A DNA stretch of 54,611 nt from an uncultured Candidatus Saccharibacteria bacterium (GCA_964461165.1 CAYWTC010000001.1:1-54611); one strand, 5' to 3'. Shown: positions 238 through 22,441, numbered from the stretch's first letter. A program made the numbers and translations. The notes: generated by a model not told the origin, from the sequence alone.

Positions 238-808
238 GAGCCGCATGATAGTATCTCCGCGGTTACGTTATGCTCTAGAAGAGGCATCACGTCTTCACAG
301 ACACCAAACACGAAAAGATGCACTGCACACGCCGTACATAAGCCACCTTGTTGGCGTTATGCTTATTTTGTCATCTGTAACAGACGATGAGGATATTCTT
401 ATCGCTGGACTATTGCATGACAGTCTTGAAGACGTACCAGAGTACACCGAAGATCTCCTCCGAGACGCGTTTGGCGACAGAGTAACCTCAATTGTCATGA
501 CCGTCACCGAAATAGGTAAGCTTCACGATGTCTATACACCATGGAAACAGGAAAAGGACATCTATTTACAGCAGCTTGACGCGGGAAGCGATGAGGCATT
601 ACTTGTCTCCCTTGCGGACAAAATCCACAATGCAGAAAGTTGCACCGTCGATGCACGACAACAAGGAAACTCGCTTGACGGTGAACGTTTTACTTCTTCA
701 CCAGATGAAAGGATGTGGTTATATACTGAGGTGTACAATCGGGGACGCACACGACTAGGGGACGACCACGCTCTCGTCAAGATGCTACACACGACAATTA
801 CGAGATAA
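236..808 (+). CDS. HD-domain metal-dependent phosphohydrolase (RelA/SpoT-hydrolase-like)
   Basis: 190-aa ORF with an HD-superfamily signature (SHLVGV ... LLHDSLEDV). An alternative start at 245 is possible. Confidence 0.75.
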   Translation: MSRMIVSPRLRYALEEASRLHRHQTRKDALHTPYISHLVGVMLILSSVTDDEDILIAGLLHDSLEDVPEYTEDLLRDAFGDRVTSIVMTVTEIGKLHDVYTPWKQEKDIYLQQLDAGSDEALLVSLADKIHNAESCTVDARQQGNSLDGERFTSSPDERMWLYTEVYNRGRTRLGDDHALVKMLHTTITR

Positions 809-821
809 TCACAACACTACT

Positions 822-1571
822 ATGTTCGAAATCTACTTACCAATTATTGTCTCACTTTTTATTATTGAAGTGCTTTTATCAGTGGACAACGCACTTGTTA
901 ATGCAACACTTGCAGAATCACTCCCAGAACATAAGCGCGCAAAGGCTTTACGTATCGGTATATTACTCGGAGCACTTTTTAGAATTATCGCACTCTTTGC
1001 AGTCTCATATATTATTCAAAATGACTGGATCAAGCTTGCTGGTGGGGCATACCTTGTGTATCTTGCAATTAATCACCTTGGAAAGGTAGTCACCGAGTCT
1101 GGCACAACCATCACCCCAAAGACGACATTTCGGGGTGTCATTATGCAAATAGCGCTTGCGGACATTGTATTTAGTATTGATAACGTCATTTCTGCTGTGT
1201 CATTTTCTGACAACACATACATCGTCATGCTTGGCGTTGGTATAGGCGTGCTCAGCATGCTTTTTATTACGCCAATCCTTTCACGACTGATTCACAAGTA
1301 CAAAGGAATGCCACAAGCAGCATATGCAATCGTAGGCCTCGTGGGAGTAGCACTTATTTGGGAAACAATATCCCACATTCATATTCCTGAATATGTAAAA
1401 TTTGCATGCGTACTTGCCATTGCGATCTTTACTGTATGGTACGAACATAGCCGTCATCTTCGACGTATAAGTACGCCATTTCTTAAAGGTGCTCAATACA
1501 TCATTGCGTTACCGTATGATATATATTACGCACTCCGTCACATGATACGCATGATTATTCAAAAAATATAA
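822..1571 (+). CDS. TerC-family integral membrane protein
   Basis: 249-aa multi-TM ORF with the duplicated TerC-type motif SVDNALVNA / SIDNVISAV. Confidence 0.75.
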   Translation: MFEIYLPIIVSLFIIEVLLSVDNALVNATLAESLPEHKRAKALRIGILLGALFRIIALFAVSYIIQNDWIKLAGGAYLVYLAINHLGKVVTESGTTITPKTTFRGVIMQIALADIVFSIDNVISAVSFSDNTYIVMLGVGIGVLSMLFITPILSRLIHKYKGMPQAAYAIVGLVGVALIWETISHIHIPEYVKFACVLAIAIFTVWYEHSRHLRRISTPFLKGAQYIIALPYDIYYALRHMIRMIIQKI

Positions 1572-1584
1572 GAGGCTTCATCTT

Positions 1585-1593
1585 TGGTATACT
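1585..1593 (+). promoter_or_regulatory. extended -10 element (TGGTATACT) of helicase-nuclease gene
   Basis: TGnTAnnnT lies 8 nt upstream of ATG 1602. No SD. Confidence 0.5.
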
Positions 1594-1601
1594 ATACAGA
1601 C

Positions 1602-4600
1602 ATGGAAGCAACTTTTAAGGACCGCTACAAAGCACTCAACACTGCACAGAAAAGAGCAGTTGATACCACAGACGGTCCTGTGATGGTAGTTGCCGGACCG
1701 GGAAGTGGAAAGACTGAGCTCCTCGCACTTCGCGTCGGTGCAATTTTACAAAATGGTACCGCGAAAGCTTCGAGCATTTTACTGTTAACTTTTACAGAAA
1801 CCGCGGCGCGCAACATGCGTGAGCGTTTAGAGCGACTCATCGGTAGTGACGCGTACCGTGTAGCTATTTACACCTTTCACGGATTTTGCACAGACATTAT
1901 TGGACGATATCCAGAATACTTTTTTGAGGCGACACACTTTCGTCCTGCAAGCACTCTTATACAGAGTGAAATACTTCAACATATTTTTGAACAGCTGCCA
2001 CACAAACATGTTCTTGGAGGGTTCCACCCAGAACGTGGCTACGCATACCTCAAAGAAAGCCAGGGTCGTATTCAGGACATTAAAAAAGGAGGTTTGACCC
2101 CACAACACTTTAAAGAGCTGCTACAAGAAAATGAGCAGGCCTACACATCCTTAAACAAGATTCTTGCACGACACCTTCCAGAGAGAATAGGCAAAGATTC
2201 ATCAATCGCCTACGAAACAATGGCGACGGAATTACAAGCTACGCAAAGCAATCTCGGAAGCATGTATGCCGCCCGCATACGACAGGCGATATCACAAGCA
2301 GAAGAAACCGAGAAAACAACCCCACTCTCTACATGGAAAACTACCTATACAGGTAAAGATGATTCGGGAAATCGTGTATTCAAAGATTTTCTATCGCTGC
2401 CAAAACTTTTTGCACTTGGCGATGTGTATGAGCTATACCAACAAGCTCTTCACAAAGAAGGGTACTTTGACTATGACGACATGATACTTCACGTCGTCGA
2501 AGCGTTACAAAAAAATATACCACTTCGAACTGAATTAGAAGAGCTCTACCAGTACATCATGGTGGACGAGTTCCAGGACACAAACAACGCTCAACTTCTC
2601 CTTGTAAAATCTCTTTCGAGTAATCCCGTTCACGAAGGCAGGCCAAATGTGTGCGTCGTAGGGGATGATGATCAGGCAATTTATAAATTCCAAGGAGCAG
2701 AAATATCAAATATTCTTTCATTTAGAGAACTCTATCGTGACGTAGAAGTTATCGTGCTTACAGAAAATTATCGATCGACGCAAAAGGTGCTTGATTTTGC
2801 ACGAGCAATCGTCACACAAGGTGTGGAACGCCTCGAGACTACCTACACAGAAATACGCAAAGACCTGCGAGCAAAAAACCCACATCTAGAACCTGGCAAC
2901 ATTTACACACAATCATTTAGCTCTCAAGAAGAGGAGTATCTCTACGTGGCACATGAAGTGTCTCGGCTCCTTGCGGCTGGAGTTAGTCACCGCGAGGTAG
3001 CCATTATCGCTCGTGAACACAGACAACTTACAAAGCTTTTACCGTATCTCGATGCACACAGCATAGCCTATACCTACGAACGAAAGGAAAACGTTTTCGA
3101 CGAGCCACACGTACGCGAACTTATTACACTGTGTGATCTCCTAGCTTCAATCAGTGGAACAACTTTTGAAAAGGACTACTTACTTCCGACGATACTTGCC
3201 TTTCCATTTTGGGGTATTGATAGGCTGAGTATTTGGAGAATTGCGGAGCACGCAAAAAGTAGTAATATCTCGTGGCTTGAAACCATGCTCGCGAGTACCG
3301 ATACTCACATTTCAAATATCGCAACATTTTTAATAGAGCTCGGCGTCGCATCTCAAACGACACCACTTGAGATTATTCTTGATAACCTTATAGGGAGCAA
3401 AGAGCATGTACTCATACAAGATTCCGAAGATGACGATGAATACCAAGCGACGCCATACACACTTAACCTTCATACGACGTACAGATCTCCATATAAAGAC
3501 TACTACTTTAACAAAGATCTCTTACAAGATAAGAAAAGTGCCTACATTCACTTTCTGTCATCACTCAGTGAGTTTATAAAGGCGTTGAGAGAGTACAGAG
3601 AATATGAAGTACTCAAAGTGCATGACGTGATGAAGTTCGTACAAATGCATGTTGATTACAATGTCCCGCTAACGAACAAAACGTCATTTGCTCACAATGA
3701 AGAGTCTGTATCCCTCATAACATCTCATGGTGCAAAAGGGCTCGAGTTCGCATATGTGTTCATCGTATCTGTTAATGACGACATTTGGGCAGGTGGACGC
3801 AAAGGTAACAAGCTCACATTCCCAATCAACATACCTCTTGGGAGCGCAGGGGATACCGAGGACGACTTTATACGGCTTTTTTATGTAGCACTTACTCGTG
3901 CACGACACACGCTTTATATCACACACCACGCAAGCATGCTTCGTTTTTTGCAAACAAGTGATCTTCCTGACACTGACACCCCTCTGCTACCCATCGACTC
4001 TCCCGAGCTTCTCGCATCTGGGCTTCACATTTACCATGCGCCACCATTTGCACAGAATGAGCGTGCATTACTACAAAAAGTAATCGAAGGGTACATGCTC
4101 TCGCCAACACACTTGAATAACTTTTTGGACCTCACAAAAGGTGGTCCACTTATGTTCCTCGAACATAATCTCCTACGCTTCCCACAAGCAAAGACGGCGA
4201 GCAGTGTCTATGGAACAGCGATTCACAAAGCATTAGAAGAAGCTCATGTGTACGCTACCACCCACAAGAGTGCACCTCCGCAAGATGCCCTCATAACAAC
4301 ATTTACAAAAGAATTACACCGGGGACGTCTTCAAGATTTTGAAACTACCAAGCTACGAGCTCGTGGAGAAAAAGCTTTGAAACAGTACTATGACCTTAAC
4401 CATACAACATTTAATGGGGCTCACATAGTGGAGCTTAACTTTGCAAAGCAGTCAGTTCACCTTGATGGAGCACTGCTTACCGGAAAGATAGATAAGATAA
4501 TCGACTACGGTGACGGCACCTGGGGAGTGATGGACCTTAAAACAGGAAAGGGGTTTGACGCTTGGGAGCAGTCAGGAATGACTTCGTACGACAACATAAA

Positions 4601-4913
4601 ACTACATCACTATAAACATCAGCTTATGATGTACAAACTTCTCGTAGAAAATTCTCGTGACTACGCTACTCATAGTGTCATACGTGGGTCACTTGAATTT
4701 GTAGAAGAAACAAATGAAACTGGTGGCATACAAGAGCTCGTGCTTCCGCTTACATACAAAGATGCCGCTCATGACCTGGTGCGATTCAAGCAGCTCGTAC
4801 ACGCAGTGTATACAAAAATAACAACGCTTGATTTCCCAGATACAAGTTCATACGAACCAACACTAGAGGGGATACAAGCATTCGAAGATGATCTGATCAA
4901 AGGAGTGGTATAA
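1602..4913 (+). CDS. UvrD/PcrA-type SF1 helicase fused to a C-terminal PD-(D/E)XK nuclease (AddA/RecB-like)
   Basis: Walker A is GPGSGKT. Other helicase motifs are DEFQD, VGDDDQAIYKFQGA and TENYRS. The C-terminal nuclease motifs are GKIDKI, DLKTGK and QLMMYKLL. The ORF track starts at 1584 (TTG); ATG 1602 is preferred. Confidence 0.85.
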   Translation: MEATFKDRYKALNTAQKRAVDTTDGPVMVVAGPGSGKTELLALRVGAILQNGTAKASSILLLTFTETAARNMRERLERLIGSDAYRVAIYTFHGFCTDIIGRYPEYFFEATHFRPASTLIQSEILQHIFEQLPHKHVLGGFHPERGYAYLKESQGRIQDIKKGGLTPQHFKELLQENEQAYTSLNKILARHLPERIGKDSSIAYETMATELQATQSNLGSMYAARIRQAISQAEETEKTTPLSTWKTTYTGKDDSGNRVFKDFLSLPKLFALGDVYELYQQALHKEGYFDYDDMILHVVEALQKNIPLRTELEELYQYIMVDEFQDTNNAQLLLVKSLSSNPVHEGRPNVCVVGDDDQAIYKFQGAEISNILSFRELYRDVEVIVLTENYRSTQKVLDFARAIVTQGVERLETTYTEIRKDLRAKNPHLEPGNIYTQSFSSQEEEYLYVAHEVSRLLAAGVSHREVAIIAREHRQLTKLLPYLDAHSIAYTYERKENVFDEPHVRELITLCDLLASISGTTFEKDYLLPTILAFPFWGIDRLSIWRIAEHAKSSNISWLETMLASTDTHISNIATFLIELGVASQTTPLEIILDNLIGSKEHVLIQDSEDDDEYQATPYTLNLHTTYRSPYKDYYFNKDLLQDKKSAYIHFLSSLSEFIKALREYREYEVLKVHDVMKFVQMHVDYNVPLTNKTSFAHNEESVSLITSHGAKGLEFAYVFIVSVNDDIWAGGRKGNKLTFPINIPLGSAGDTEDDFIRLFYVALTRARHTLYITHHASMLRFLQTSDLPDTDTPLLPIDSPELLASGLHIYHAPPFAQNERALLQKVIEGYMLSPTHLNNFLDLTKGGPLMFLEHNLLRFPQAKTASSVYGTAIHKALEEAHVYATTHKSAPPQDALITTFTKELHRGRLQDFETTKLRARGEKALKQYYDLNHTTFNGAHIVELNFAKQSVHLDGALLTGKIDKIIDYGDGTWGVMDLKTGKGFDAWEQSGMTSYDNIKLHHYKHQLMMYKLLVENSRDYATHSVIRGSLEFVEETNETGGIQELVLPLTYKDAAHDLVRFKQLVHAVYTKITTLDFPDTSSYEPTLEGIQAFEDDLIKGVV

Positions 4914-4942
4914 AAAGAAAGCAAGGCGCCGTGGCGCCTTGC
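4912..4942 (-). terminator. intrinsic terminator of cassette A (hairpin between convergent genes)
   Basis: Stem gcaaggcgc/gcgccttgc at 4921-4929/4934-4942. The A-run at 4912-4920 gives a U-tract on the minus strand. Confidence 0.6.
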
Positions 4943-4965
4943 GAGAAGGGTATGAACAGTCTTCC

Positions 4966-5331
4966 TCATGCAACCTTCAAATGCATGAGGAAATGGTCTG
5001 GAGGAACCACACCGGTTCTGGACCAGGTGTAGATCTTTGTCGCACCGCCGTGCTCCAGAAAGTCCTTGATAGTGAGAATCCCCACCTCAGCAAGTTTGCG
5101 CACCGTATACGATGACGCAAACACACCGATTCGGACAAGTTGAACGAAAATGTGATTCCAAAGCAACGCGCCCGCGCGGTCCACAGACGCCCTCATCTCT
5201 TTGATTTCAATGAGGGTAAGAGGCGACCACTCGCCTGTGCCAGTGGCAACTGACCAATCTGCAAGCAGCGCCGTCACACGGCCCATAGCAGTGTGAACTG
5301 ATCTCCGAATAGCCAGGTAATCGGCTGTCAT
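4966..5331 (-). CDS. hypothetical protein, 121 aa (GC-rich cassette A, gene 2)
   Basis: AAGGAG (5338-5343) lies 6 nt upstream of ATG 5331. The ORF follows the gene 1 stop by 18 nt. No family recognised. There is a weak helix-hairpin-helix-like stretch, TVRKLAEVGILTIKDFLEHG. Confidence 0.6.
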   Translation of the reverse strand: MTADYLAIRRSVHTAMGRVTALLADWSVATGTGEWSPLTLIEIKEMRASVDRAGALLWNHIFVQLVRIGVFASSYTVRKLAEVGILTIKDFLEHGGATKIYTWSRTGVVPPDHFLMHLKVA

Positions 5332-5348
5332 GACTAACTCCTTTTCTT

Positions 5349-6047
5349 TCAAATGATATTTCTCGTCGCAAGCGGCGACATCGCACGCAGCGCAATATAG
5401 CGCAGCCCTGTGACATGGCCAATGAGGGCAGCAACCTTTTTCTCGGACCTTGCACGCAGCATGTCAGTCACCATAAGGTGGTGACCGTCAGCGAGGCCTT
5501 CAAGCGAGATGTCTTCCAATCCCGGTTGACGCAGCACAAGATGTACCTTGCGCCGCAAGATATCAACCACTGCATCGAGATCATCTTGGTCGGGAGCATT
5601 TGTTTCTGCCTCATTGAGAGCGATCATGGCATGCAAGAGCGCCTGCAAAAGCTTGCTACCTTCCAAGGTTGAGGTTGGCACAACAGAAGCATTCTCGTTG
5701 TGCATTTCAAGCACCACAATTTTGCGCAGGTCGCGACTTGCCGACATGGCCATGCGGACTTGTTGGTACGGAGCATTGATGAAACCACGAAGCGTGGTCA
5801 CACCAACCCCTTGCTCAACCCTTGCCGCAATCAGCTTTGTCATACACCCGGTGAGGGCAATGTCAGATGCCTCACCATTCAAGGCAACATCGCGGGCATC
5901 CGCCATAACCTTGATCAAATCAATGAACTTGCTCACATCAATGAGTCTCATCGTGTTGGACCCTGAAAGCAGGATGAGTGCTTTCTTGATACCCCGATAC
6001 AGCGCAGCTGCAAAAGCCGCGTTTGATCCAATGAACGTCGTTGCCAT
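5349..6047 (-). CDS. hypothetical protein, 232 aa (GC-rich cassette A, gene 1)
   Basis: GGAGG (6052-6056) lies 4 nt upstream of the ATG. The region is GC-rich (36/60 at 5401-5460). No family recognised. Confidence 0.65.
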   Translation of the reverse strand: MATTFIGSNAAFAAALYRGIKKALILLSGSNTMRLIDVSKFIDLIKVMADARDVALNGEASDIALTGCMTKLIAARVEQGVGVTTLRGFINAPYQQVRMAMSASRDLRKIVVLEMHNENASVVPTSTLEGSKLLQALLHAMIALNEAETNAPDQDDLDAVVDILRRKVHLVLRQPGLEDISLEGLADGHHLMVTDMLRARSEKKVAALIGHVTGLRYIALRAMSPLATRNII

Positions 6048-6148
6048 AAGGCCTCCGGATTAGATTAAATGAAATGAAAAAAACAACAAAGAATAGCCAT
6101 ATACAACACTACAACACAATTGTCGTATAGTCAACGTTTTTAATCTCC

Positions 6149-6157
6149 TGATATACT
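6149..6157 (+). promoter_or_regulatory. extended -10 element (TGATATACT) of nuclease gene
   Basis: TGnTAnnnT lies 7 nt upstream of ATG 6165. No SD. Confidence 0.5.
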
Positions 6158-6164
6158 TATCGTC

Positions 6165-7022
6165 ATGGCAGATAAATACACCGCAGTGTGGGTATCACAC
6201 TCATCAATGGGAGACTTTCTTAAGTGTCCACGATTGTACTACTTACACAATATGTACAAAGACCCTCAAACAGGGCGCAAGATGTCTATAGTCACCCCAC
6301 ATATGTCGCTTGGTATCGCAGTACACAATGTGCTCGAGGGCCTTGCAAACTACCCAGCGGGTGAGCGTATGAAAAGGGATCTTCGTGCCACATTTGAAGA
6401 AGAATGGCTACACGTTGCGGGGATACGTGGTGGTTTTACATCAGAGACCGAAGAAGAGACATTTAAACTACGCGGCAAGGAGATGATTAATACCGTCATC
6501 AAAAATCCACGCTTTCTCACCAACAAACGAATTAAACTTCCGAAGGAAAAAATGAACCCAAACTTCTACCTCTCCGAGGACGATAACATCATTCTTAATG
6601 GTCAGGTGGACTGGATAGAATACTTACCTGACGACACACTTCATATTGTAGACTTCAAAACTGGTAAGCATGAAGAAAAAGAAGGTTCACTTCAGCTACC
6701 TATTTATCTCCTCCTCTGTAATGCGCTACAAAAAAGATCTGTCAGCAAAGCAAGTTACTGGTATCTCGAGAGTGATTCTGTGGTAGAGAAAGACTTGCCC
6801 GATATTTCCCAGGCGCGCCACGATGTCTACCAGCTTGCGATTCAAGTCAAAGAAGCTCGTGATAAAAATATATTTATATGTCCACGGGGAGATGCTGGAT
6901 GTATTCACTGCACGCCATATGAAAAAATTCTTCGATGGAGAAAGGATTCGTCGGTTGCCGGGGTAACATCTGTTGGTGTCGGGGGATTTAATCAAGATAT
7001 ATTTGTGGTGAACAATTCGTAA
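6165..7022 (+). CDS. PD-(D/E)XK nuclease, Cas4/AddB-nuclease-domain-like with 4-Cys cluster
   Basis: Nuclease motifs are GQVDWI, IVDFKTGK and QLPIYLL. The Cys pattern is CPRLYY at the N-terminus plus CPRGDAGCIHC at the C-terminus, typical of Fe-S Cas4/AddB nuclease domains. Confidence 0.8.
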   Translation: MADKYTAVWVSHSSMGDFLKCPRLYYLHNMYKDPQTGRKMSIVTPHMSLGIAVHNVLEGLANYPAGERMKRDLRATFEEEWLHVAGIRGGFTSETEEETFKLRGKEMINTVIKNPRFLTNKRIKLPKEKMNPNFYLSEDDNIILNGQVDWIEYLPDDTLHIVDFKTGKHEEKEGSLQLPIYLLLCNALQKRSVSKASYWYLESDSVVEKDLPDISQARHDVYQLAIQVKEARDKNIFICPRGDAGCIHCTPYEKILRWRKDSSVAGVTSVGVGGFNQDIFVVNNS

Positions 7023-8059: not shown

Positions 8060-9169
8060 ATGTCAGCATATAGCGCTTCCGGGGTCAACTACCAGCAACT
8101 CGACCCGGCAAAGATCATTTTTCAAAATGCGGCGGCTGCAACCGAGCTGCTCACGAGAATTGAAGCTCTGACGAGGCCGCTCCCGTGGACACGTGGAGAG
8201 AGTTGCTTTCTGCATCGTATCGACGGGAGCGATCTCTGTCTTGCCCATGTACACGAGACACTCGGCACGAAAAACCTCGTGGCAGATGCCATGGAGCTGC
8301 TCACCGGCAGAAACTACTACCACGGCATCGGACAGGACGGTGTGGCCATGGTGGTAAACGACATGATCACCCTCGGGGCTCTGCCGATCTCAGTCGCAAT
8401 GCACCTCTCTGCGGGGTCCTCTGCCTGGTTCAAGGACTTAGACCGGGTTACCAATCTTGCACAAGGGTGGGCGCAAGCCTGTGTGTTCGCAGGAGCTACA
8501 TGGGCAGGCGGCGAAACGCCGGCACTGACAGACATTCTCATGCCAGATGTCTGCGAACTGTCCGGATCAGCTCTCGGTGTGGTGCATGAAGATCACATCA
8601 TGAACCCACTTCATTTAGAGCAGGGGGATGAGATGGTTTTCCTCAGCAACCCCGGCCTCGGAGCGAACGGGTTCACGCTTGCTCGCGAAATTTCATACCT
8701 TCTTGACGAAGGATATCTGACAAAGATCGACAACGATGGCACGACCTACGGCGAAGCCTTGCTCACACCAACGCCAATCTATGTATCTGCGCTGCGCAGC
8801 TTGCAACGTAACGGCCTCAAGCCTGTATATGGCGTCAACGTGACAGGGCACGGCATGTTGAAGCTGATGCGGGCGCCGCAGTCTTTCACCTACCGCGTGA
8901 CCGCTCTCCCAGTGAAAACACCCGCCGTGTTTGAACGTATCCAGGACGCGAAGAAGATTTCCAAAGAAGAAATGTACTCGACGTACAACATGGGTATCGG
9001 ATTCGTATTCTTTGTGAAAAACGGTGAGGCAGGTACCGCAGTAGACCTTCTGGCGAAGGCTGGCTTTGGTGCTTGGCGGGGCGGTTATGTTGGTAGGGCA
9101 GGCACCAAACAGGTAATCATTGAAGAGCTTGGGGTTGTATACAAAGGAGCTCAGCTCAGCATTCGTTAA
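8060..9169 (+). CDS. AIR-synthase (PurM)-related protein (GC-rich cassette B)
   Basis: 369-aa ORF with a PurM-superfamily layout (TLGTKNLVAD, VNDMITLGA, GGETP, NVTGHG, TYNMGIGF). AAGGAA SD lies 7 nt upstream. Region is GC-rich (34/60 at 8341-8400). Confidence 0.7.
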   Translation: MSAYSASGVNYQQLDPAKIIFQNAAAATELLTRIEALTRPLPWTRGESCFLHRIDGSDLCLAHVHETLGTKNLVADAMELLTGRNYYHGIGQDGVAMVVNDMITLGALPISVAMHLSAGSSAWFKDLDRVTNLAQGWAQACVFAGATWAGGETPALTDILMPDVCELSGSALGVVHEDHIMNPLHLEQGDEMVFLSNPGLGANGFTLAREISYLLDEGYLTKIDNDGTTYGEALLTPTPIYVSALRSLQRNGLKPVYGVNVTGHGMLKLMRAPQSFTYRVTALPVKTPAVFERIQDAKKISKEEMYSTYNMGIGFVFFVKNGEAGTAVDLLAKAGFGAWRGGYVGRAGTKQVIIEELGVVYKGAQLSIR

Positions 9170-9228: not shown

Positions 9229-9282
9229 TTACTTGCAAGAATAAATTATTGAGTAGTATACTCATATCTACAACATCATAGT

Positions 9283-9417
9283 TGTTATCAAGAGTGTGGA
9301 GAGAGATTTGGCTCTATGACCCACCAGCAACCCTCAGTAATGAGTAGGTGCTTCCAACCCCGAGACGGGGAAAGATAATTTTGTCTTTCTCTCCACGGGC
9401 TTGTGAGAGTTTTTTTA
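9283..9417 (+). promoter_or_regulatory. SAM-I (S-box) riboswitch with terminator expression platform
   Basis: Matches the SAM-I core: UUAUCAAGAG, GGAGAGA, GGCUC, UGA, GCAACC, GGUGC and AGAUAA closing P1. GUGGAGAG (aptamer) can pair with CUCUCCAC (9389-9396), which otherwise forms a terminator stem with gtgagag, followed by a T-run at 9410-9417. Sits directly upstream of metK. Confidence 0.85.
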
Positions 9418-9441
9418 TTTGTACTTAACACTTACCTCATC

Positions 9442-10380
9442 ATGAGAAAAACAGCAGAATGTGTGAGCCCTGGACACCCAGACAAGCGATGTGACTTTAT
9501 AGCAGACAGTATTTTAGATGCGTACACCGCAATTGATAAAGATAGTCGTGTAGCGATGGAAGTGATGGGAGGACATAACCTTGTTACCATCAACGGCGAA
9601 GTAACGTCTCGTGCGACACCGGACATTGAAGCCGTAGTAAAAGCTATTGTAGGTGACGACTACCGCGTAATCGTCAACATTGTTGCTCAGAGCCCAGAAA
9701 TTGCCCGTGGCGTGGACACAGGTGGTGCAGGTGATCAAGGTATCATGAAAGGTTACGCAACGAGTGAATCAAGTACGCTCATGCCTTTGGAATATGACCT
9801 CGCACGAAATCTATGCCAGAAAATTTATGCAGTATACCCCTATGACGGAAAGACACAGGTGACGATTGAAGGGGACAAAGTTACTACGGTGGTGGCAAGC
9901 TTTCAGAATACAAAAAACGATGAGCTACTTGCACTCGTGAAATCTGTGATCACTGCGGATGAATATCTCATCAACCCGGCAGGCGAATGGACACAAGGTG
10001 GCTTTGATGCAGACACAGGACTATCTGGCCGCAAACTCATCGTAGATAACTACGGTCCAGAAATCACCATCGGTGGTGGGTCATTCTCTGGGAAAGATTA
10101 TACAAAGGTAGATCGTTCTGCTGCATATATGGCACGACGTGTCGCAGTAGACCTCCTTCGTTCACGAGGGGCCACAGAAGTGTTTACCAAGCTCGCGTAT
10201 GCAATCGGTAAAGCAGAACCAGTCATGGCAGTCGCAGTAATAGACGGAGTAGAAGAAACAATCACGGGGTACGACCTCACGCCACGAGGCATTCGTACTG
10301 CGCTTGATCTTGATAACGTCAAATATATCGAGACGTGTACCTGGGGACACTTTGGAAGAAACTTTCCATGGGACAAGTAA
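9442..10380 (+). CDS. metK: S-adenosylmethionine synthetase (compact form, about 312 aa)
   Basis: SPGHPDKRCD, GAGDQGIM and GGGSFSGKDYTKVDRSAAY motifs. The ORF-track GTG start at 9403 lies inside the riboswitch terminator, so ATG 9442 is preferred. Confidence 0.85.
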   Translation: MRKTAECVSPGHPDKRCDFIADSILDAYTAIDKDSRVAMEVMGGHNLVTINGEVTSRATPDIEAVVKAIVGDDYRVIVNIVAQSPEIARGVDTGGAGDQGIMKGYATSESSTLMPLEYDLARNLCQKIYAVYPYDGKTQVTIEGDKVTTVVASFQNTKNDELLALVKSVITADEYLINPAGEWTQGGFDADTGLSGRKLIVDNYGPEITIGGGSFSGKDYTKVDRSAAYMARRVAVDLLRSRGATEVFTKLAYAIGKAEPVMAVAVIDGVEETITGYDLTPRGIRTALDLDNVKYIETCTWGHFGRNFPWDK

Positions 10381-10403: not shown

Positions 10404-10444
10404 AATAATGCGCGGCACCCAGAGGGTGCCGCGCATTATTTTAT
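10404..10444 (+). terminator. intrinsic terminator after metK
   Basis: 17-bp stem aataatgcgcggcaccc/gggtgccgcgcattatt with loop aga, then a T-rich tail. Confidence 0.75.
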
Positions 10445-10472: not shown

Positions 10473-10488
10473 TAGAACAAATGTTCTA
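10473..10488. promoter_or_regulatory. LexA operator (Cheo/SOS box, GAAC-N4-GTTC type)
   Basis: Perfect palindrome TAGAACAAATGTTCTA, ending 2 nt before a TACACT -10 and 14 nt before the lexA ATG. Confidence 0.7.
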
Positions 10489-10489
10489 C

Positions 10490-10495
10490 TACACT
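10490..10495 (+). promoter_or_regulatory. -10 hexamer (TACACT) of lexA
   Basis: Lies 6 nt upstream of ATG 10502 and abuts the SOS box. No SD. Confidence 0.4.
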
Positions 10496-10501
10496 GCATG
10501 C

Positions 10502-11062
10502 ATGGAAGATAGCCTTGCAATCACAACATTTTTTAATGAACATAACCGTATGCCCACCTATGAGGAGATGAAAGACCTCTTTGGTGTCGCCTCAAAAAAT
10601 ACTGTCTCATACCGAGTGGATAAACTAATCGAGCAAGGGATACTCGAAAAGTACGCTGGCAAACTATCCCTCGTGCAAACAGGGTCCGTCATGCGCCTCG
10701 GTACAGTACAAGCAGGGTTCCCCACTCAGGCAGAAGAGTACACCGCAGAGCTCGTATCACTTGATGACTTCCTCATCGAACGAAAAGAATCTACCTACAT
10801 GCTCGAGGTGCAAGGTGAGTCGATGATAGATGCCGGCATTATGGAAGGAGATCTCGTCCTCGTCGAACGTGGACGTACACCACGAAAAGGAGATATCGTA
10901 CTAGCCCTTGTCGACAATGAGTACACACTCAAATACTTAGAAACAGAAAAAGGTCGCCCCGTGCTAGTACCAGCAAACAAAGCATTCAAAAAAATCTACC
11001 CCAACCCAAACACACTCCGCATCGAAGCAATATTAAAAGCAGTTATTAGAAAATATCGATAA
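10502..11062 (+). CDS. lexA: LexA repressor (S24 peptidase)
   Basis: N-terminal winged HTH. Cleavage and catalytic region motifs are VQAGFP, GESMIDAGI, GDLVLVE and EYTLKYL. The ORF-track ATG at 10481 lies inside the operator, so ATG 10502 is preferred. Confidence 0.85.
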   Translation: MEDSLAITTFFNEHNRMPTYEEMKDLFGVASKNTVSYRVDKLIEQGILEKYAGKLSLVQTGSVMRLGTVQAGFPTQAEEYTAELVSLDDFLIERKESTYMLEVQGESMIDAGIMEGDLVLVERGRTPRKGDIVLALVDNEYTLKYLETEKGRPVLVPANKAFKKIYPNPNTLRIEAILKAVIRKYR

Positions 11063-11498: not shown

Positions 11499-11702
11499 TA
11501 TGAGCTTTACGGTGGTCTTTTTATAGATATCACCAGGAACTATTTACATTATTTATAATGTGTGTTAGGATTGCTCGCAGGTTTGTACATTGAATCACTC
11601 CCGTCCGCAAGGATTGGAACTTGATGTGCTTGCCGACCTTTGCCCCTTAAACCGTCATATCGACGGAGAGGGGTTGTGATTCTACAAGGAAAAAGGAAAC
11701 AC

Positions 11703-12428
11703 ATGAACCCGAACCTGAAGACCTCCGCCGCCTTTCGCCAGAGCCTGATTTCTGGGGCAATTTTCGCGGCAGTTGCTGCGATCGTGACTGCTTCCGGCCA
11801 GGTGATGGCGGCGGCGGCCAACCCGGACACCACCGACAAAACCATGTCGCTGGCGGTTGGTCAGGCACGTACCGCACTGTCGGCGTTTGCTGACACCATT
11901 GCGCACTGCAAAACCGAGGAAATCGCCAAGGGCGATGCCTACGCCCCGATTGATCACACCCTGCTGACGCAGGACGTGATCGACAGCCTCGGCGAGGGCG
12001 GCTTTGCCAAGCGTGGCACGATGCGGTTGGTGATTACCTTCCTCCACAAGGAAGGTGAGCCCACTTTCCAGCGCGTCGAGGAAATCGCCAATGTGGCCCT
12101 CGGCAAGCTGACCCTTGCGCTGGACGAGATCGAAGTCGTTGGCAATGGCGACCAAGCAGGCATGCTTGGTGCCAGCCTGAAGTTCAGCCACGCAGTGGCT
12201 GGCATGATGGCAGACCTGACGGCAACGGCAACGCTCATTGCGCAGGCTGATCTGATTGCCAACGACTGGTCCTTTGTGCCTCTGGCGTCGGCACACGGTG
12301 TCATGACCACCAACCTGGTCGGTGGCATGCCGAAAACCGATGCAGGCATCGACGACATCCGTAGCAAGACGACGGATCCGGGTAACGTTGGCACTGCGCA
12401 GGCCGATCAGCTGGCCACGGCCACGTAA
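11703..12428 (+). CDS. hypothetical secreted protein, 241 aa (GC-rich cassette C)
   Basis: AAGGA lies 5 nt upstream of ATG 11703. Signal-peptide-like N-terminus (KTSAAFRQSLISGAIFAAVAAIVTASGQVMAAAA). Very GC-rich (40/60 at 11761-11820). Own terminator. No family recognised. Confidence 0.65.
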   Translation: MNPNLKTSAAFRQSLISGAIFAAVAAIVTASGQVMAAAANPDTTDKTMSLAVGQARTALSAFADTIAHCKTEEIAKGDAYAPIDHTLLTQDVIDSLGEGGFAKRGTMRLVITFLHKEGEPTFQRVEEIANVALGKLTLALDEIEVVGNGDQAGMLGASLKFSHAVAGMMADLTATATLIAQADLIANDWSFVPLASAHGVMTTNLVGGMPKTDAGIDDIRSKTTDPGNVGTAQADQLATAT

Positions 12429-20767: not shown

Positions 20768-21112
20768 TTACTCCTGGGTAGTAACCTCAGTCTCGGGTGC
20801 AAGCATTCGAACTTCTTCAAACGTAGAGTCCTTTTGTCGCGTCGAGATATGAATTTCTCCCCAGCCGCACGACCGCACGTAGCTTAGAAAATCTGGATGA
20901 ATTACTTCCTCATTCAAGATTCCTTCGGTACTAAACAGTCGATACAAGCGTGTCGAGCCTTTTCGTGCGCTCACGATAATCATGACGGCAACTACCTTTG
21001 TGTTGCCGTCAACAGCCTCACGCACTTGGCTTCGAGTGGGGATGTGATACCCACTACAAGCACTACGGCAATCTCCTACACCGTTCGGTAATATCAACGC
21101 TAAGATTTGCAT
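20768..21112 (-). CDS. hypothetical protein, 114 aa (GC-rich cassette E, gene 2)
   Basis: AAGGAA (21121-21126) lies 8 nt upstream of the ATG. No family recognised. Confidence 0.5.
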   Translation of the reverse strand: MQILALILPNGVGDCRSACSGYHIPTRSQVREAVDGNTKVVAVMIIVSARKGSTRLYRLFSTEGILNEEVIHPDFLSYVRSCGWGEIHISTRQKDSTFEEVRMLAPETEVTTQE

Positions 21113-21251: not shown

Positions 21252-22091
21252 CTACTTGGGCGCGGTTGATCCTGGCACAAACTCCTGATGCCGAAACGCT
21301 CCAACAAGCCTGGCAACATAGACCGTCATATGCGCCAGCGCAAGCCGCGCCTTGACGTTCTCAGGGGCTCTCACAGCTGGCACAACATCTGCTTCGTAGG
21401 CGTCCCAATATGAGCGCGCCACGAACGTCACTGCGCGCTCGGTGCTCGGCTCTAGGTGCACCACGTGACAGTAGTTGCAGTCGTCATTTGCAGCTCGCGC
21501 TACACGCGAAGCTGTGCCCGGGATAAACGGGTCGAGTAGATCTTTCGTCACAACAACGGTGACCGTGTGCAACTTTCCGTTTGATTTGCCCCGCGCATCT
21601 ATCGCTATGACGTAGCGACTCGCCCCAGGAACCCTCATGATCTCTCGCGGGAGCTTCTGGAAGAGCTTACACAGACCTTCAGGTGACATGGTTACTGGGA
21701 GCGTGCCAATGGCGTACCCTTCAGAACCATCAACCTGAAAGCAGCCTTCCCAGTACGGGGTCACTAGCAAATCATCAAATGAAAGCTTGTCAGGTTTCTT
21801 ATCTGATGGTTTTTTTTCTGACGGTTTTACCCTGATGACAAAAGGGCGACAGCGCTCACCATCTTCGCCAACAAAAGATACCAGGCCGTCTTGGTAGAGA
21901 TCCGCAGAAGGAGCAAGAAACTGTTGGTCTAGTATGCGAAAAGCAGAACAAGCTGTACGCAGTACCTTGACCACCAGAACCCGCTCTTCTTGGCGAGAAG
22001 CAAAGAAAGAAAGCAGACTTCTCTGTAAACCTACCGAGAAGTCTTTCACTGAAAACCACGGAGTGAACGTGGTGCGAATAGTATCGCTCAT
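21252..22091 (-). CDS. hypothetical two-domain protein, 279 aa (GC-rich cassette E, gene 1)
   Basis: GAGG lies 6 nt upstream of ATG 22091 (the ORF-track TTG is at 22103). Lys/Pro-rich linker KPSEKKPSDKKPDK between two domains. GC-rich (36/60 at 21361-21420). No family recognised. Confidence 0.6.
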   Translation of the reverse strand: MSDTIRTTFTPWFSVKDFSVGLQRSLLSFFASRQEERVLVVKVLRTACSAFRILDQQFLAPSADLYQDGLVSFVGEDGERCRPFVIRVKPSEKKPSDKKPDKLSFDDLLVTPYWEGCFQVDGSEGYAIGTLPVTMSPEGLCKLFQKLPREIMRVPGASRYVIAIDARGKSNGKLHTVTVVVTKDLLDPFIPGTASRVARAANDDCNYCHVVHLEPSTERAVTFVARSYWDAYEADVVPAVRAPENVKARLALAHMTVYVARLVGAFRHQEFVPGSTAPK

Positions 22092-22441
22092 GGGGAACCT
22101 CAACTTTCTATAAGTAAGAGGGGGGTTAAAAATAGGACTCTTAAAAACTTATCCTACAGAGAAACCTAGGCAAAGTCAATTATGTAAAAATAAACCAGAG
22201 GCCTGAGAGGGGTGACCTCGTTCTCAAACAGCGCCAGTCTCTAAAGTTTTCTGCACGCGAATTGTTATACCGTGGGAATGCAAAGTTGTGATGATATATA
22301 AAGACAAGAGAGGACAAGGGTTTTTTAATATAGGTAATGTCGCACAATATATCTTTTACGACTATAAGGTCTTGGAATTATCCACAGGTCAAGCTCTATG
22401 CCTATGACTCATAGCTTCTAACTACGTGACCCCAACTACAC

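Follow-up and report, generated by a model that had tools for sequence, protein, structure and literature searches.

Why do two GC-rich genes lie antisense between a helicase-nuclease and a nuclease whose genes adjoin each other directly in some relatives? The question is raised by a stretch of 54,611 nucleotides from an uncultured Candidatus Saccharibacteria bacterium (GCA_964461165.1, CAYWTC010000001.1:1-54611; "the window" hereafter means this whole stretch). In it, plus-strand genes for an AddA-like helicase-nuclease and for a Cas4/AddB-nuclease-like enzyme are separated by a minus-strand pair encoding proteins of 232 and 121 residues, here called A232 and B121. The host is a Paceibacteria bacterium (Patescibacteria, or candidate phyla radiation, CPR) of waste water and fresh water. 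The reading we favour, without calling it probable, is that the pair is a resident, hypervariable accessory operon made up of an adaptor that binds DNA or a partner and of a variable partner, and that it may modulate the neighbouring end-processing enzymes. The initial annotation had described an acquired module that splits the locus. This view gives way to that of a long-resident slot, which fits better than recent insertion because the same site is occupied in a sister strain, analogous and partly interrelated open reading frames (ORFs) fill the junction in most species in which the two enzymes are neighbours, slot proteins and flanks change at contrasting rates, and mobile or phage hallmarks are missing.

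The sister strain is represented by contigs L001-L004 from activated-sludge assemblies, in which gene order is identical to that of the window. The two strains have 15.5 kb in common, 96% identical outside two hot spots, and their flanking proteins are 98-100% identical, with 98% for the helicase and 99% for the nuclease between the window and L001. The same pair is found at the same site between the same flanks, where the B121 homologue retains 87% identity and the A232 homologue, of 230 residues, 72%. Nonsynonymous divergence (dN) is 0.165 for A232 and 0.067 for B121, compared with 0.003 for the nuclease.

Beyond the sister strain, 184 relatives of the nuclease were found in GTDB genomes, all of them in Patescibacteria of Paceibacteria, Nomurabacteria or Yonathbacteria type, and in 32 of the 80 loci fetched the nuclease gene is directly preceded by the helicase-nuclease gene in the same orientation. 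The two genes are as little as 4-11 bp apart in L022, L033 and L039, where a synteny check proposed with the initial annotation thus finds helicase and nuclease contiguous, and as much as 3.3 kb elsewhere. Most of the gaps contain between one and four antisense ORFs, each about 110-210 residues long, an arrangement seen in about 25 related species as well as in the window and L001-L004, and gap GC content is often 5-10 points above that of the flanks. Antisense ORFs are nearly absent upstream of the nuclease when the helicase is not its neighbour. The slot ORFs group into small families (S1-S3, F1-F6 and singletons) that are weakly, but not randomly, related to one another in an all-against-all hhalign comparison: P < 0.01 was reached by 8.4% of slot-slot pairs as against 0.5% of pairs between slot and control families, the controls being 38 families from the same loci. 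The strongest links are S2-F3 (4e-8), S2-S3 (4e-5) and S1-S3 (1e-4).

In every pair of loci compared, the slot proteins lose identity far more quickly than the flanks do. Where the nucleases are 92% identical (L007-L008), slot families F2 and F3 stand at 87% and 31%; at 95% nuclease identity (L009-L011) F4 is down to 49%, and at 87% (L042-L023) the slot protein is down to 27%. Slot proteins thus change at tens of times the rate of their flanks, and this rate is enough on its own to explain why the pair looks orphan. Neither protein matches Pfam, NCBIfam, PHROG or PADLOC, even at E = 10, in line with the earlier description of a two-gene unit without a recognisable family. A word-seeded search of 5.8 billion clustered proteins returned one relative per protein, the sister-strain copy, and HMMER with an A232 profile against 1.84 billion representatives recovered only the protein's own cluster, again the sister-strain copy. 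No relative of the pair was found in 50,697 phage records (tblastn) or in IMG/VR and JGI metagenome contigs. Given the rate contrast, this orphan status requires neither recent acquisition nor de novo birth. In the species nearest to that of the window the nucleases are only 77-78% identical, and since slot proteins change much faster, orthologous slot proteins there would be unrecognisable at the observed rates.

That the two frames are genes at all is shown by the comparison of window and sister strain. In the latter neither frame is broken, every coding indel measures +3, -6 or -3 nucleotides, and the ratio of nonsynonymous to synonymous divergence (dN/dS) lies below the neutral expectation, at 0.34 for A232 (binomial P = 3e-7) and 0.43 for B121 (P = 0.019). 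A232 and B121 are therefore genuine coding genes under purifying but relaxed selection. Of nine backbone genes in the comparison, six, with helicase and nuclease among them, have values of 0.01-0.11, a truncated IMS gene has 0.20 and a GC-rich AIRS-like gene 0.30; the synonymous divergence (dS) of B121, at 0.155, is backbone-like. An antisense open frame at 5530-6060 (+) is shorter than A232 and kept only in part in the sister strain. Antisense open frames are usual in GC-rich DNA.

The signals around the pair support its reading as a genuine minus-strand operon of two genes that would be co-transcribed and end at one terminator serving both. ORFs, Shine-Dalgarno sites, an overlapping TTG and a terminator had all been described previously, and all are present where they had been placed (Table 1). 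The ATG of B121 does follow the A232 stop, as claimed, at a distance of 17 nt; the 18 nt given earlier include the A of the ATG. Upstream extension takes the B121 frame to a TTG at 5352 that overlaps the A232 stop, TGA (5351-5349), and the longer frame contains no stop in the sister strain either (L001 10128-10514). Direct reading of the sequence gives the terminator stem 10 complementary bases in each arm around a 2-nt loop, where a scan, which calls it as a strong minus-strand terminator, counts 9 pairs and a 4-nt loop, and the hairpin was also found as an inverted repeat in a repeat scan. The hairpin comes within 8 nt of the helicase stop codon, and the terminator with its T-tract abuts the helicase stop at 4913. 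On the other side, the promoter region of the pair would lie back to back with that of the nuclease gene, in a region common to both.

Table 1. Features of the locus and its flanks; positions are counted from the first nucleotide of the window.
Feature	Position	Strand	Description
A232	5349-6047	-	First gene of the putative operon; ATG start; 232 aa; from ORF listing
B121	4966-5331	-	Second gene of the putative operon; 121 aa; from ORF listing
Shine-Dalgarno GGAGG	6056-6052	-	4 nt upstream of A232 ATG; read from sequence
Shine-Dalgarno AAGGAG	5343-5338	-	6 nt upstream of B121 ATG, inside the 17-nt spacer
Intrinsic terminator	4911-4942	-	Hairpin GCAAGGCGCC-AC-GGCGCCTTGC (4942-4921), then TTTCTTTTTA
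Divergent control region	6048-6164		117 bp between A232 and the nuclease gene
Palindrome ACTACAACACAATTGTCGTATAGT	6108-6131		Within the 117-bp control region
Promoter-like site for nuclease	6128-6157	+	Within the 117-bp control region
Hyperdivergent tract	5451-6150		First ~170 A232 codons and most of the upstream spacer; ~79% identity to sister strain vs 96% backbone
Conserved A232 C-terminus	5352-5537	-	62 residues (171-232), almost invariant between the two alleles
HhH-like module	4993-5124	-	B121 residues 70-113 (FASSYTVRKLAEVGILTIKDFLE...TGVVPP)
AddA-like helicase-nuclease	1602-4913	+	1103 aa; UvrD-helicase, UvrD_C, C-terminal PDDEXK_1; Pfam
Cas4/AddB-nuclease-like enzyme	6165-7022	+	285 aa; PDDEXK_1 6.7e-20; Cas_Cas4 only 0.019, sub-threshold

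The signs of transcription of the region are anecdotal. A 242-nt contig from an RNA-type library, corresponding to window positions 4911-5149, ends exactly at 4911, the final base of the terminator T-tract, and short fragments from inside the pair occur in three further RNA-type libraries. These libraries were chosen because they contain this stretch, so they are not evidence of preferential expression.

The difference between the two strains is unevenly spread over A232. In the hyperdivergent tract dS reaches 0.66, compared with ~0.15 in the backbone, dN/dS is 0.32, and the ratio of transitions to transversions (Ts/Tv) is 1.4 as against 2.9 elsewhere. Since dS is raised while dN/dS stays at this level and Ts/Tv differs from that of the remaining sequence, tract 5451-6150 looks like a deeply diverged allele imported via homologous recombination. 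It is not the mark of recent positive selection. The N-terminus of A232 differs by 35-40% between the two alleles, and the C-terminal 62 residues have a dN of 0.053 and a dS of 0.20. Both alleles of the pair, the window type and the L001 type, were met in public sequencing runs, in which no others were found. A232 is at present unclassified and, by prediction, all-helical. Positions 5910-5944 of the gene hold an 18-nt tandem duplication of 1.9 copies, which encodes the hexapeptides IDVSKF and IDLIKV.

For B121, the initial annotation had voiced the hunch of a helix-hairpin-helix (HhH) in the small protein, and this has gained weak but independent support. Compared by hhalign with the C-terminal domain of the slot proteins S1-S3, B121 gives P = 5-6e-4 at a score of 23.4, which was reached by none of 400 column shuffles (maximum 18.9) and by none of the 38 control families. 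In the all-against-all comparison its profile gives P values of 0.002 to S3, 0.005 to L048 and 0.011 to F1. MAFFT, unaided, aligns the C-terminal 45 residues of B121 gap-free to the C-termini of the slot proteins of L006 and L014 (S1-S3), and a strict spacing motif, derived post hoc, is confined to B121 and S1-S3 among 709,715 ORF residues. When B121 and S1-S3 are combined into a joint profile, the best match among solved structures is the N-terminal domain of RAD51C (8gj9_A, E = 0.005, 39 positions), and in two relatives the HhH-like motif coincides with sub-threshold Pfam matches to RAD51D_N (E = 0.0038) and DUF4332 (E = 0.022). All three matches fall short of curated cut-offs. These observations suggest that B121 is probably a member of the slot set and that its module is probably HhH in nature. 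Tentatively, the protein would consist of an N-terminal helical hairpin followed by a C-terminal HhH-like module.

Several results weigh against the reading of the pair as a resident accessory operon with an HhH adaptor. The signal for B121 arises only from profile-profile comparison and the joint profile: phmmer and tblastn link neither A232 nor B121 to slot ORFs of relatives, two hidden Markov models built without B121 fail to retrieve it, jackhmmer fails to join it with the slot families, and B121 alone finds no Pfam match at E <= 10 and no HhH chain in a profile search of the Protein Data Bank. In addition, the three seed proteins S1-S3 were chosen by eye before testing. No slot family is significantly linked to A232; the best match, to F1 (P 0.01-0.025), spans a similar motif at A232 residues 61-92, and other profile comparisons gave P values of 0.084 to A8 and 0.59 to F3. 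AlphaFold2 models of both proteins, which the initial annotation had recommended, proved unusable, with a mean predicted local distance difference test score (pLDDT) of 36 for A232 and 43 for B121 (helices at 5-28, 40-60, 74-82 and 89-93); both models are all-helical and were built from alignments of two sequences, and neither establishes a fold. In B121 residues 61-121 pLDDT is ~30-40, so that the short helices 74-82 and 89-93 are HhH-compatible but unreliable. Slot function must moreover be dispensable, because three relatives have no slot gene. High GC at third codon positions (GC3) persists across species and is not accounted for by vertical descent. The slot also admits foreign cargo, as shown by L045, where it holds an unrelated gene with a Tad4 domain. 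Lastly, it is position that connects A232 and B121 to the flanking enzymes, and a functional role in end processing is argued from one point, namely that across species the gene set is strictly linked to the helicase/nuclease junction.

If the favoured reading of a resident operon holds, the parts could work together as follows. B121 would be a small adaptor, with an HhH of the Rad51-N-terminal or alpha-CTD (alpha C-terminal domain) type, for DNA binding or for docking onto a partner. A232 would be the variable partner, whose last ~60 residues may touch B121 or a conserved host component, and whose first ~170 residues look like deeply diverged alleles swapped by homologous recombination between otherwise 96%-identical strains. 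The complex of the two could bind DNA ends or the neighbouring helicase-nuclease or nuclease and thereby tune end processing, and the variable part of A232 may be under conflict-type diversifying pressure exerted by phage, host or competitor. Four of these steps we infer: that the module has an HhH fold, that DNA or a partner is bound, that the two proteins form a complex, and that they act on the flanking enzymes. A bolder version, which we consider decidedly unlikely, would make the antisense slot genes, this pair included, an overlooked class of accessory subunits, evolving extremely fast, that belong to a minimal end-resection machine of AddA-like and Cas4-like enzymes in Patescibacteria. 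In it, small HhH adaptors and a variable partner would set which DNA is attacked or spared (a Chi-like self-recognition or licensing) or would guard the enzyme against inhibitors made by phages. With either function one could understand why the genes keep so strictly to this junction and why they change at the pace of an arms race.

The most serious alternative is that the pair is foreign cargo, a horizontally acquired defence or anti-defence module of phage or mobile origin that landed in a permissive intergenic hot spot and is functionally unconnected with the flanking repair genes. Composition speaks for it. GC content over 4951-6000 is 0.51-0.53 compared with 0.41-0.45 in the flanks, which bears out, at 52-53% as against 43-44%, the GC rise noticed earlier, and the excess is mainly synonymous, with a GC3 of 0.56-0.57 in the pair and 0.36-0.45 in backbone genes. 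Slot content is also highly variable among species, the proteins are orphans, alleles are exchanged between strains, and the L045 slot contains a genuine Tad4 (anti-Thoeris) domain. Against these points stand the identical site of the pair in the sister strain, the relationship among slot families of different species, whose identity is always well under that of the flanks, and the specificity of the antisense ORFs to the helicase-nuclease junction. A mobile origin is further countered by the scans for hallmarks: positions 4914-6164 contain no integrase or transposase ORF and only short, chance-level repeats, none of them flanking the pair, the window has no tRNA, and PHROG, PADLOC, GenBank phages and IMG/VR provide no match or relative. 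Taken together this makes foreign cargo somewhat unlikely for the pair itself. The search for phage relatives thus came back empty, and the Tad4 gene that did emerge in the L045 slot is unrelated to the pair. The initial annotation had also raised a toxin-antitoxin-like pair, in which a growth inhibitor would be combined with a partner serving as its DNA-binding neutraliser and autoregulator. Two small, tightly spaced and co-oriented genes, an upstream palindrome and a possible DNA-binding module in B121 would suit such a system, although no toxin or antitoxin family is matched in Pfam, NCBIfam or PADLOC, no catalytic motif of toxin type was recognised, 232 residues make a large protein for either partner, and the slots of relatives hold one to four paralogous HhH-like genes and no fixed pair. 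For this idea, as for phage cargo, no positive evidence was gathered, and we regard a toxin-antitoxin function as very improbable.

Alternatively, A232 and B121 could be low-constraint young genes, lineage-specific ORFs that are expressed but almost functionless and drift where GC-rich DNA keeps frames open. Their dN/dS of 0.34-0.43, which is 3 to >30 times that of core genes, would agree with this, as would the lack of homologues in database searches and of a confident AlphaFold2 fold, the open antisense frames and the relatives that have no slot genes. Such drift is nevertheless hard to reconcile with dN/dS values significantly below 1, with the retention of the two frames, of the terminator and of a strong Shine-Dalgarno site for each gene, with a near-invariant A232 C-terminus next to so variable an N-terminus, and with a B121 motif common to slot proteins of other species, and we judge it unlikely. 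Programmed hypermutation of the variable part of A232 by a diversity-generating retroelement (DGR) or a similar mutator would offer a different source of its variation. CPR genomes often carry DGRs, and a sharply bounded tract of ~700 bp with 21% divergence is the kind of pattern that invites the idea. It is scarcely credible here and effectively refuted for this window, which at word size 7 contains no second, template copy of the tract; the substitutions are not adenine-specific, in-frame indels are present, synonymous divergence is raised equally, and the divergent tract reaches into the non-coding spacer.

The slot in other species shows further variants. In L006 it holds four tandem antisense genes (615-2306, minus strand; 135, 120, 138 and 182 aa), and because each of these neighbours carries an HhH-like motif they point to tandem duplication and divergence within the slot; L085 and L086, both short contigs from Logan, carry close orthologues. 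In L045, from a pond metagenome-assembled genome, the slot contains a GC-rich antisense ORF of 210 residues (9253-9885, minus strand) whose C-terminal 78 residues match Pfam Tad4 at E = 5e-16 and which is unrelated to the other slot families. Phages use Tad4 to inhibit the TIR protein of the Thoeris system. A sense-strand ORF of 102-111 residues (MAKVNERGTHTTTIEGA...), absent from the window, lies right after the helicase in eleven relatives (L019, L021, L023, L024, L027, L028, L031, L042, L043, L045 and L050; for example L027 8600-8911, plus strand) and has only sub-threshold Pfam matches, to DUF2103 and DUF4252.

The flanking genes are of the kind claimed for them, UvrD plus PD-(D/E)XK for the helicase-nuclease and a confirmed PDDEXK_1 domain for the nuclease. 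The latter has an N-terminal cysteine and a C-terminal CxxxxxxCxxC cluster, and no array or tandem repeat structure was found that would link this Cas4-like enzyme to CRISPR. DNA near-identical to positions 4900-6200 occurs in public runs from wastewater, sludge, river and estuary, and also in fish, bat, mouse-gut, "factory" and single-organism runs. From this range of run types it follows that the organism is ubiquitous in water, and it may be a contaminant of reagent water.

Control of the pair through the SOS response was tried and rejected. An exact-match scan for the Cheo-type box, with no mismatches allowed, finds none in the 117-bp control region, and the only perfect copy in the window, GAACAAATGTTC at 10475-10486 (+), sits immediately upstream of lexA (10481-11062), which is followed by a short 143-aa fragment of an IMS/Y-family polymerase. 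Rfam recognises no structured RNA in the GC-rich tract, its only match in the window being a SAM-I (S-adenosylmethionine) riboswitch at 9282-9381 (+; 64 bits) upstream of the S-adenosylmethionine synthetase gene; a perfect hairpin lies at ~10408-10442 between metK and lexA.

The pair is not the only GC-rich island, since the window holds three more at ~8.1-9.2 kb, 11.6-12.5 kb and 21-22 kb. The first corresponds to the AIRS-like gene mentioned above (8060-9169, plus strand; GC3 0.61), and two GC-rich ORFs at 20768-21112 and 21252-22103, both on the minus strand, have no Pfam match. ORF 11640-12428 (+) encodes a 262-aa orphan with an N-terminal hydrophobic segment resembling a signal or anchor; its GC3 of 0.71 is the highest of the region, its sole Pfam match is a sub-threshold one to HbpS-like, and it forms the second divergence hot spot, with 80% nucleotide identity to the sister strain compared with 96% in the backbone. 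No relationship was found between A232 and this orphan. High synonymous GC thus coincides with fast evolution or orphan status in this genome, an unexplained tie that deserves to be flagged.

Although patescibacterial genomes are tiny, this junction stays filled with small proteins that change rapidly. Should slot proteins indeed act together with the flanking enzymes, they would represent a novel type of regulator or specificity factor in the processing of double-strand breaks, and this in a vast group of uncultured bacteria about whose recombination and defence against phage almost nothing is known. Otherwise the locus would still illustrate how orphan genes can arise by divergence rate alone, with a nuclease at 99% and A232 at 72% identity, and how deeply diverged alleles can be shuffled between near-identical strains.

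As it stands, the pair matches no described system and no new mechanism is demonstrated, although parts of it resemble several known ones. One possible likeness is that of B121 to HhH domains, namely the N-terminal HhH of RAD51 paralogues (RAD51C, 8gj9; RAD51D_N, PF21794), DUF4332 (PF14229) and perhaps, as the initial annotation had proposed, the CTD of the RNA polymerase alpha subunit. B121 at residues ~70-100, S1-S3, F1 and F2 share the pattern F..(S/T)VR.KL...G(I/F).T(I/V).D(F/L)(L/I)E, which can be matched position for position to the N-terminal domain of RAD51C, and the size of ~45 residues, the helical prediction and the recombination enzymes next door also fit. B121 differs in that all Pfam matches stay below the gathering threshold and the protein by itself matches nothing, that its module is C-terminal in a stand-alone protein of 121 residues with no ATPase core, and that a second hairpin is not evident. 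Type II toxin-antitoxin operons resemble the pair in consisting of two short adjacent genes behind an upstream palindrome; family matches are missing, gene number varies from one to four among relatives and the first gene encodes 232 residues.

Integration hot spots and defence islands are variable islands between conserved core genes. With them the slot has in common a fixed position between two conserved genes, varying content, atypical composition, fast evolution and, in one relative, an anti-defence-type Tad4 domain; unlike them it is devoid of integrase or recombinase and of att-like repeats, its occupants are mostly interrelated, and PADLOC finds no match. Small protein modulators of AddAB and RecBCD, for their part, include phage inhibitors of the Gam or Abc2 type. 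To these A232 and B121 have no sequence or structural similarity, and they are chromosomally resident instead of phage-borne, linked to the enzymes by position alone. What brings them close to AddAB/RecBCD-type complexes is this very position, with an AddA-like helicase-nuclease immediately on one side and an AddB/Cas4-like Fe-S nuclease on the other, where small helical proteins could bind DNA ends or the enzyme.

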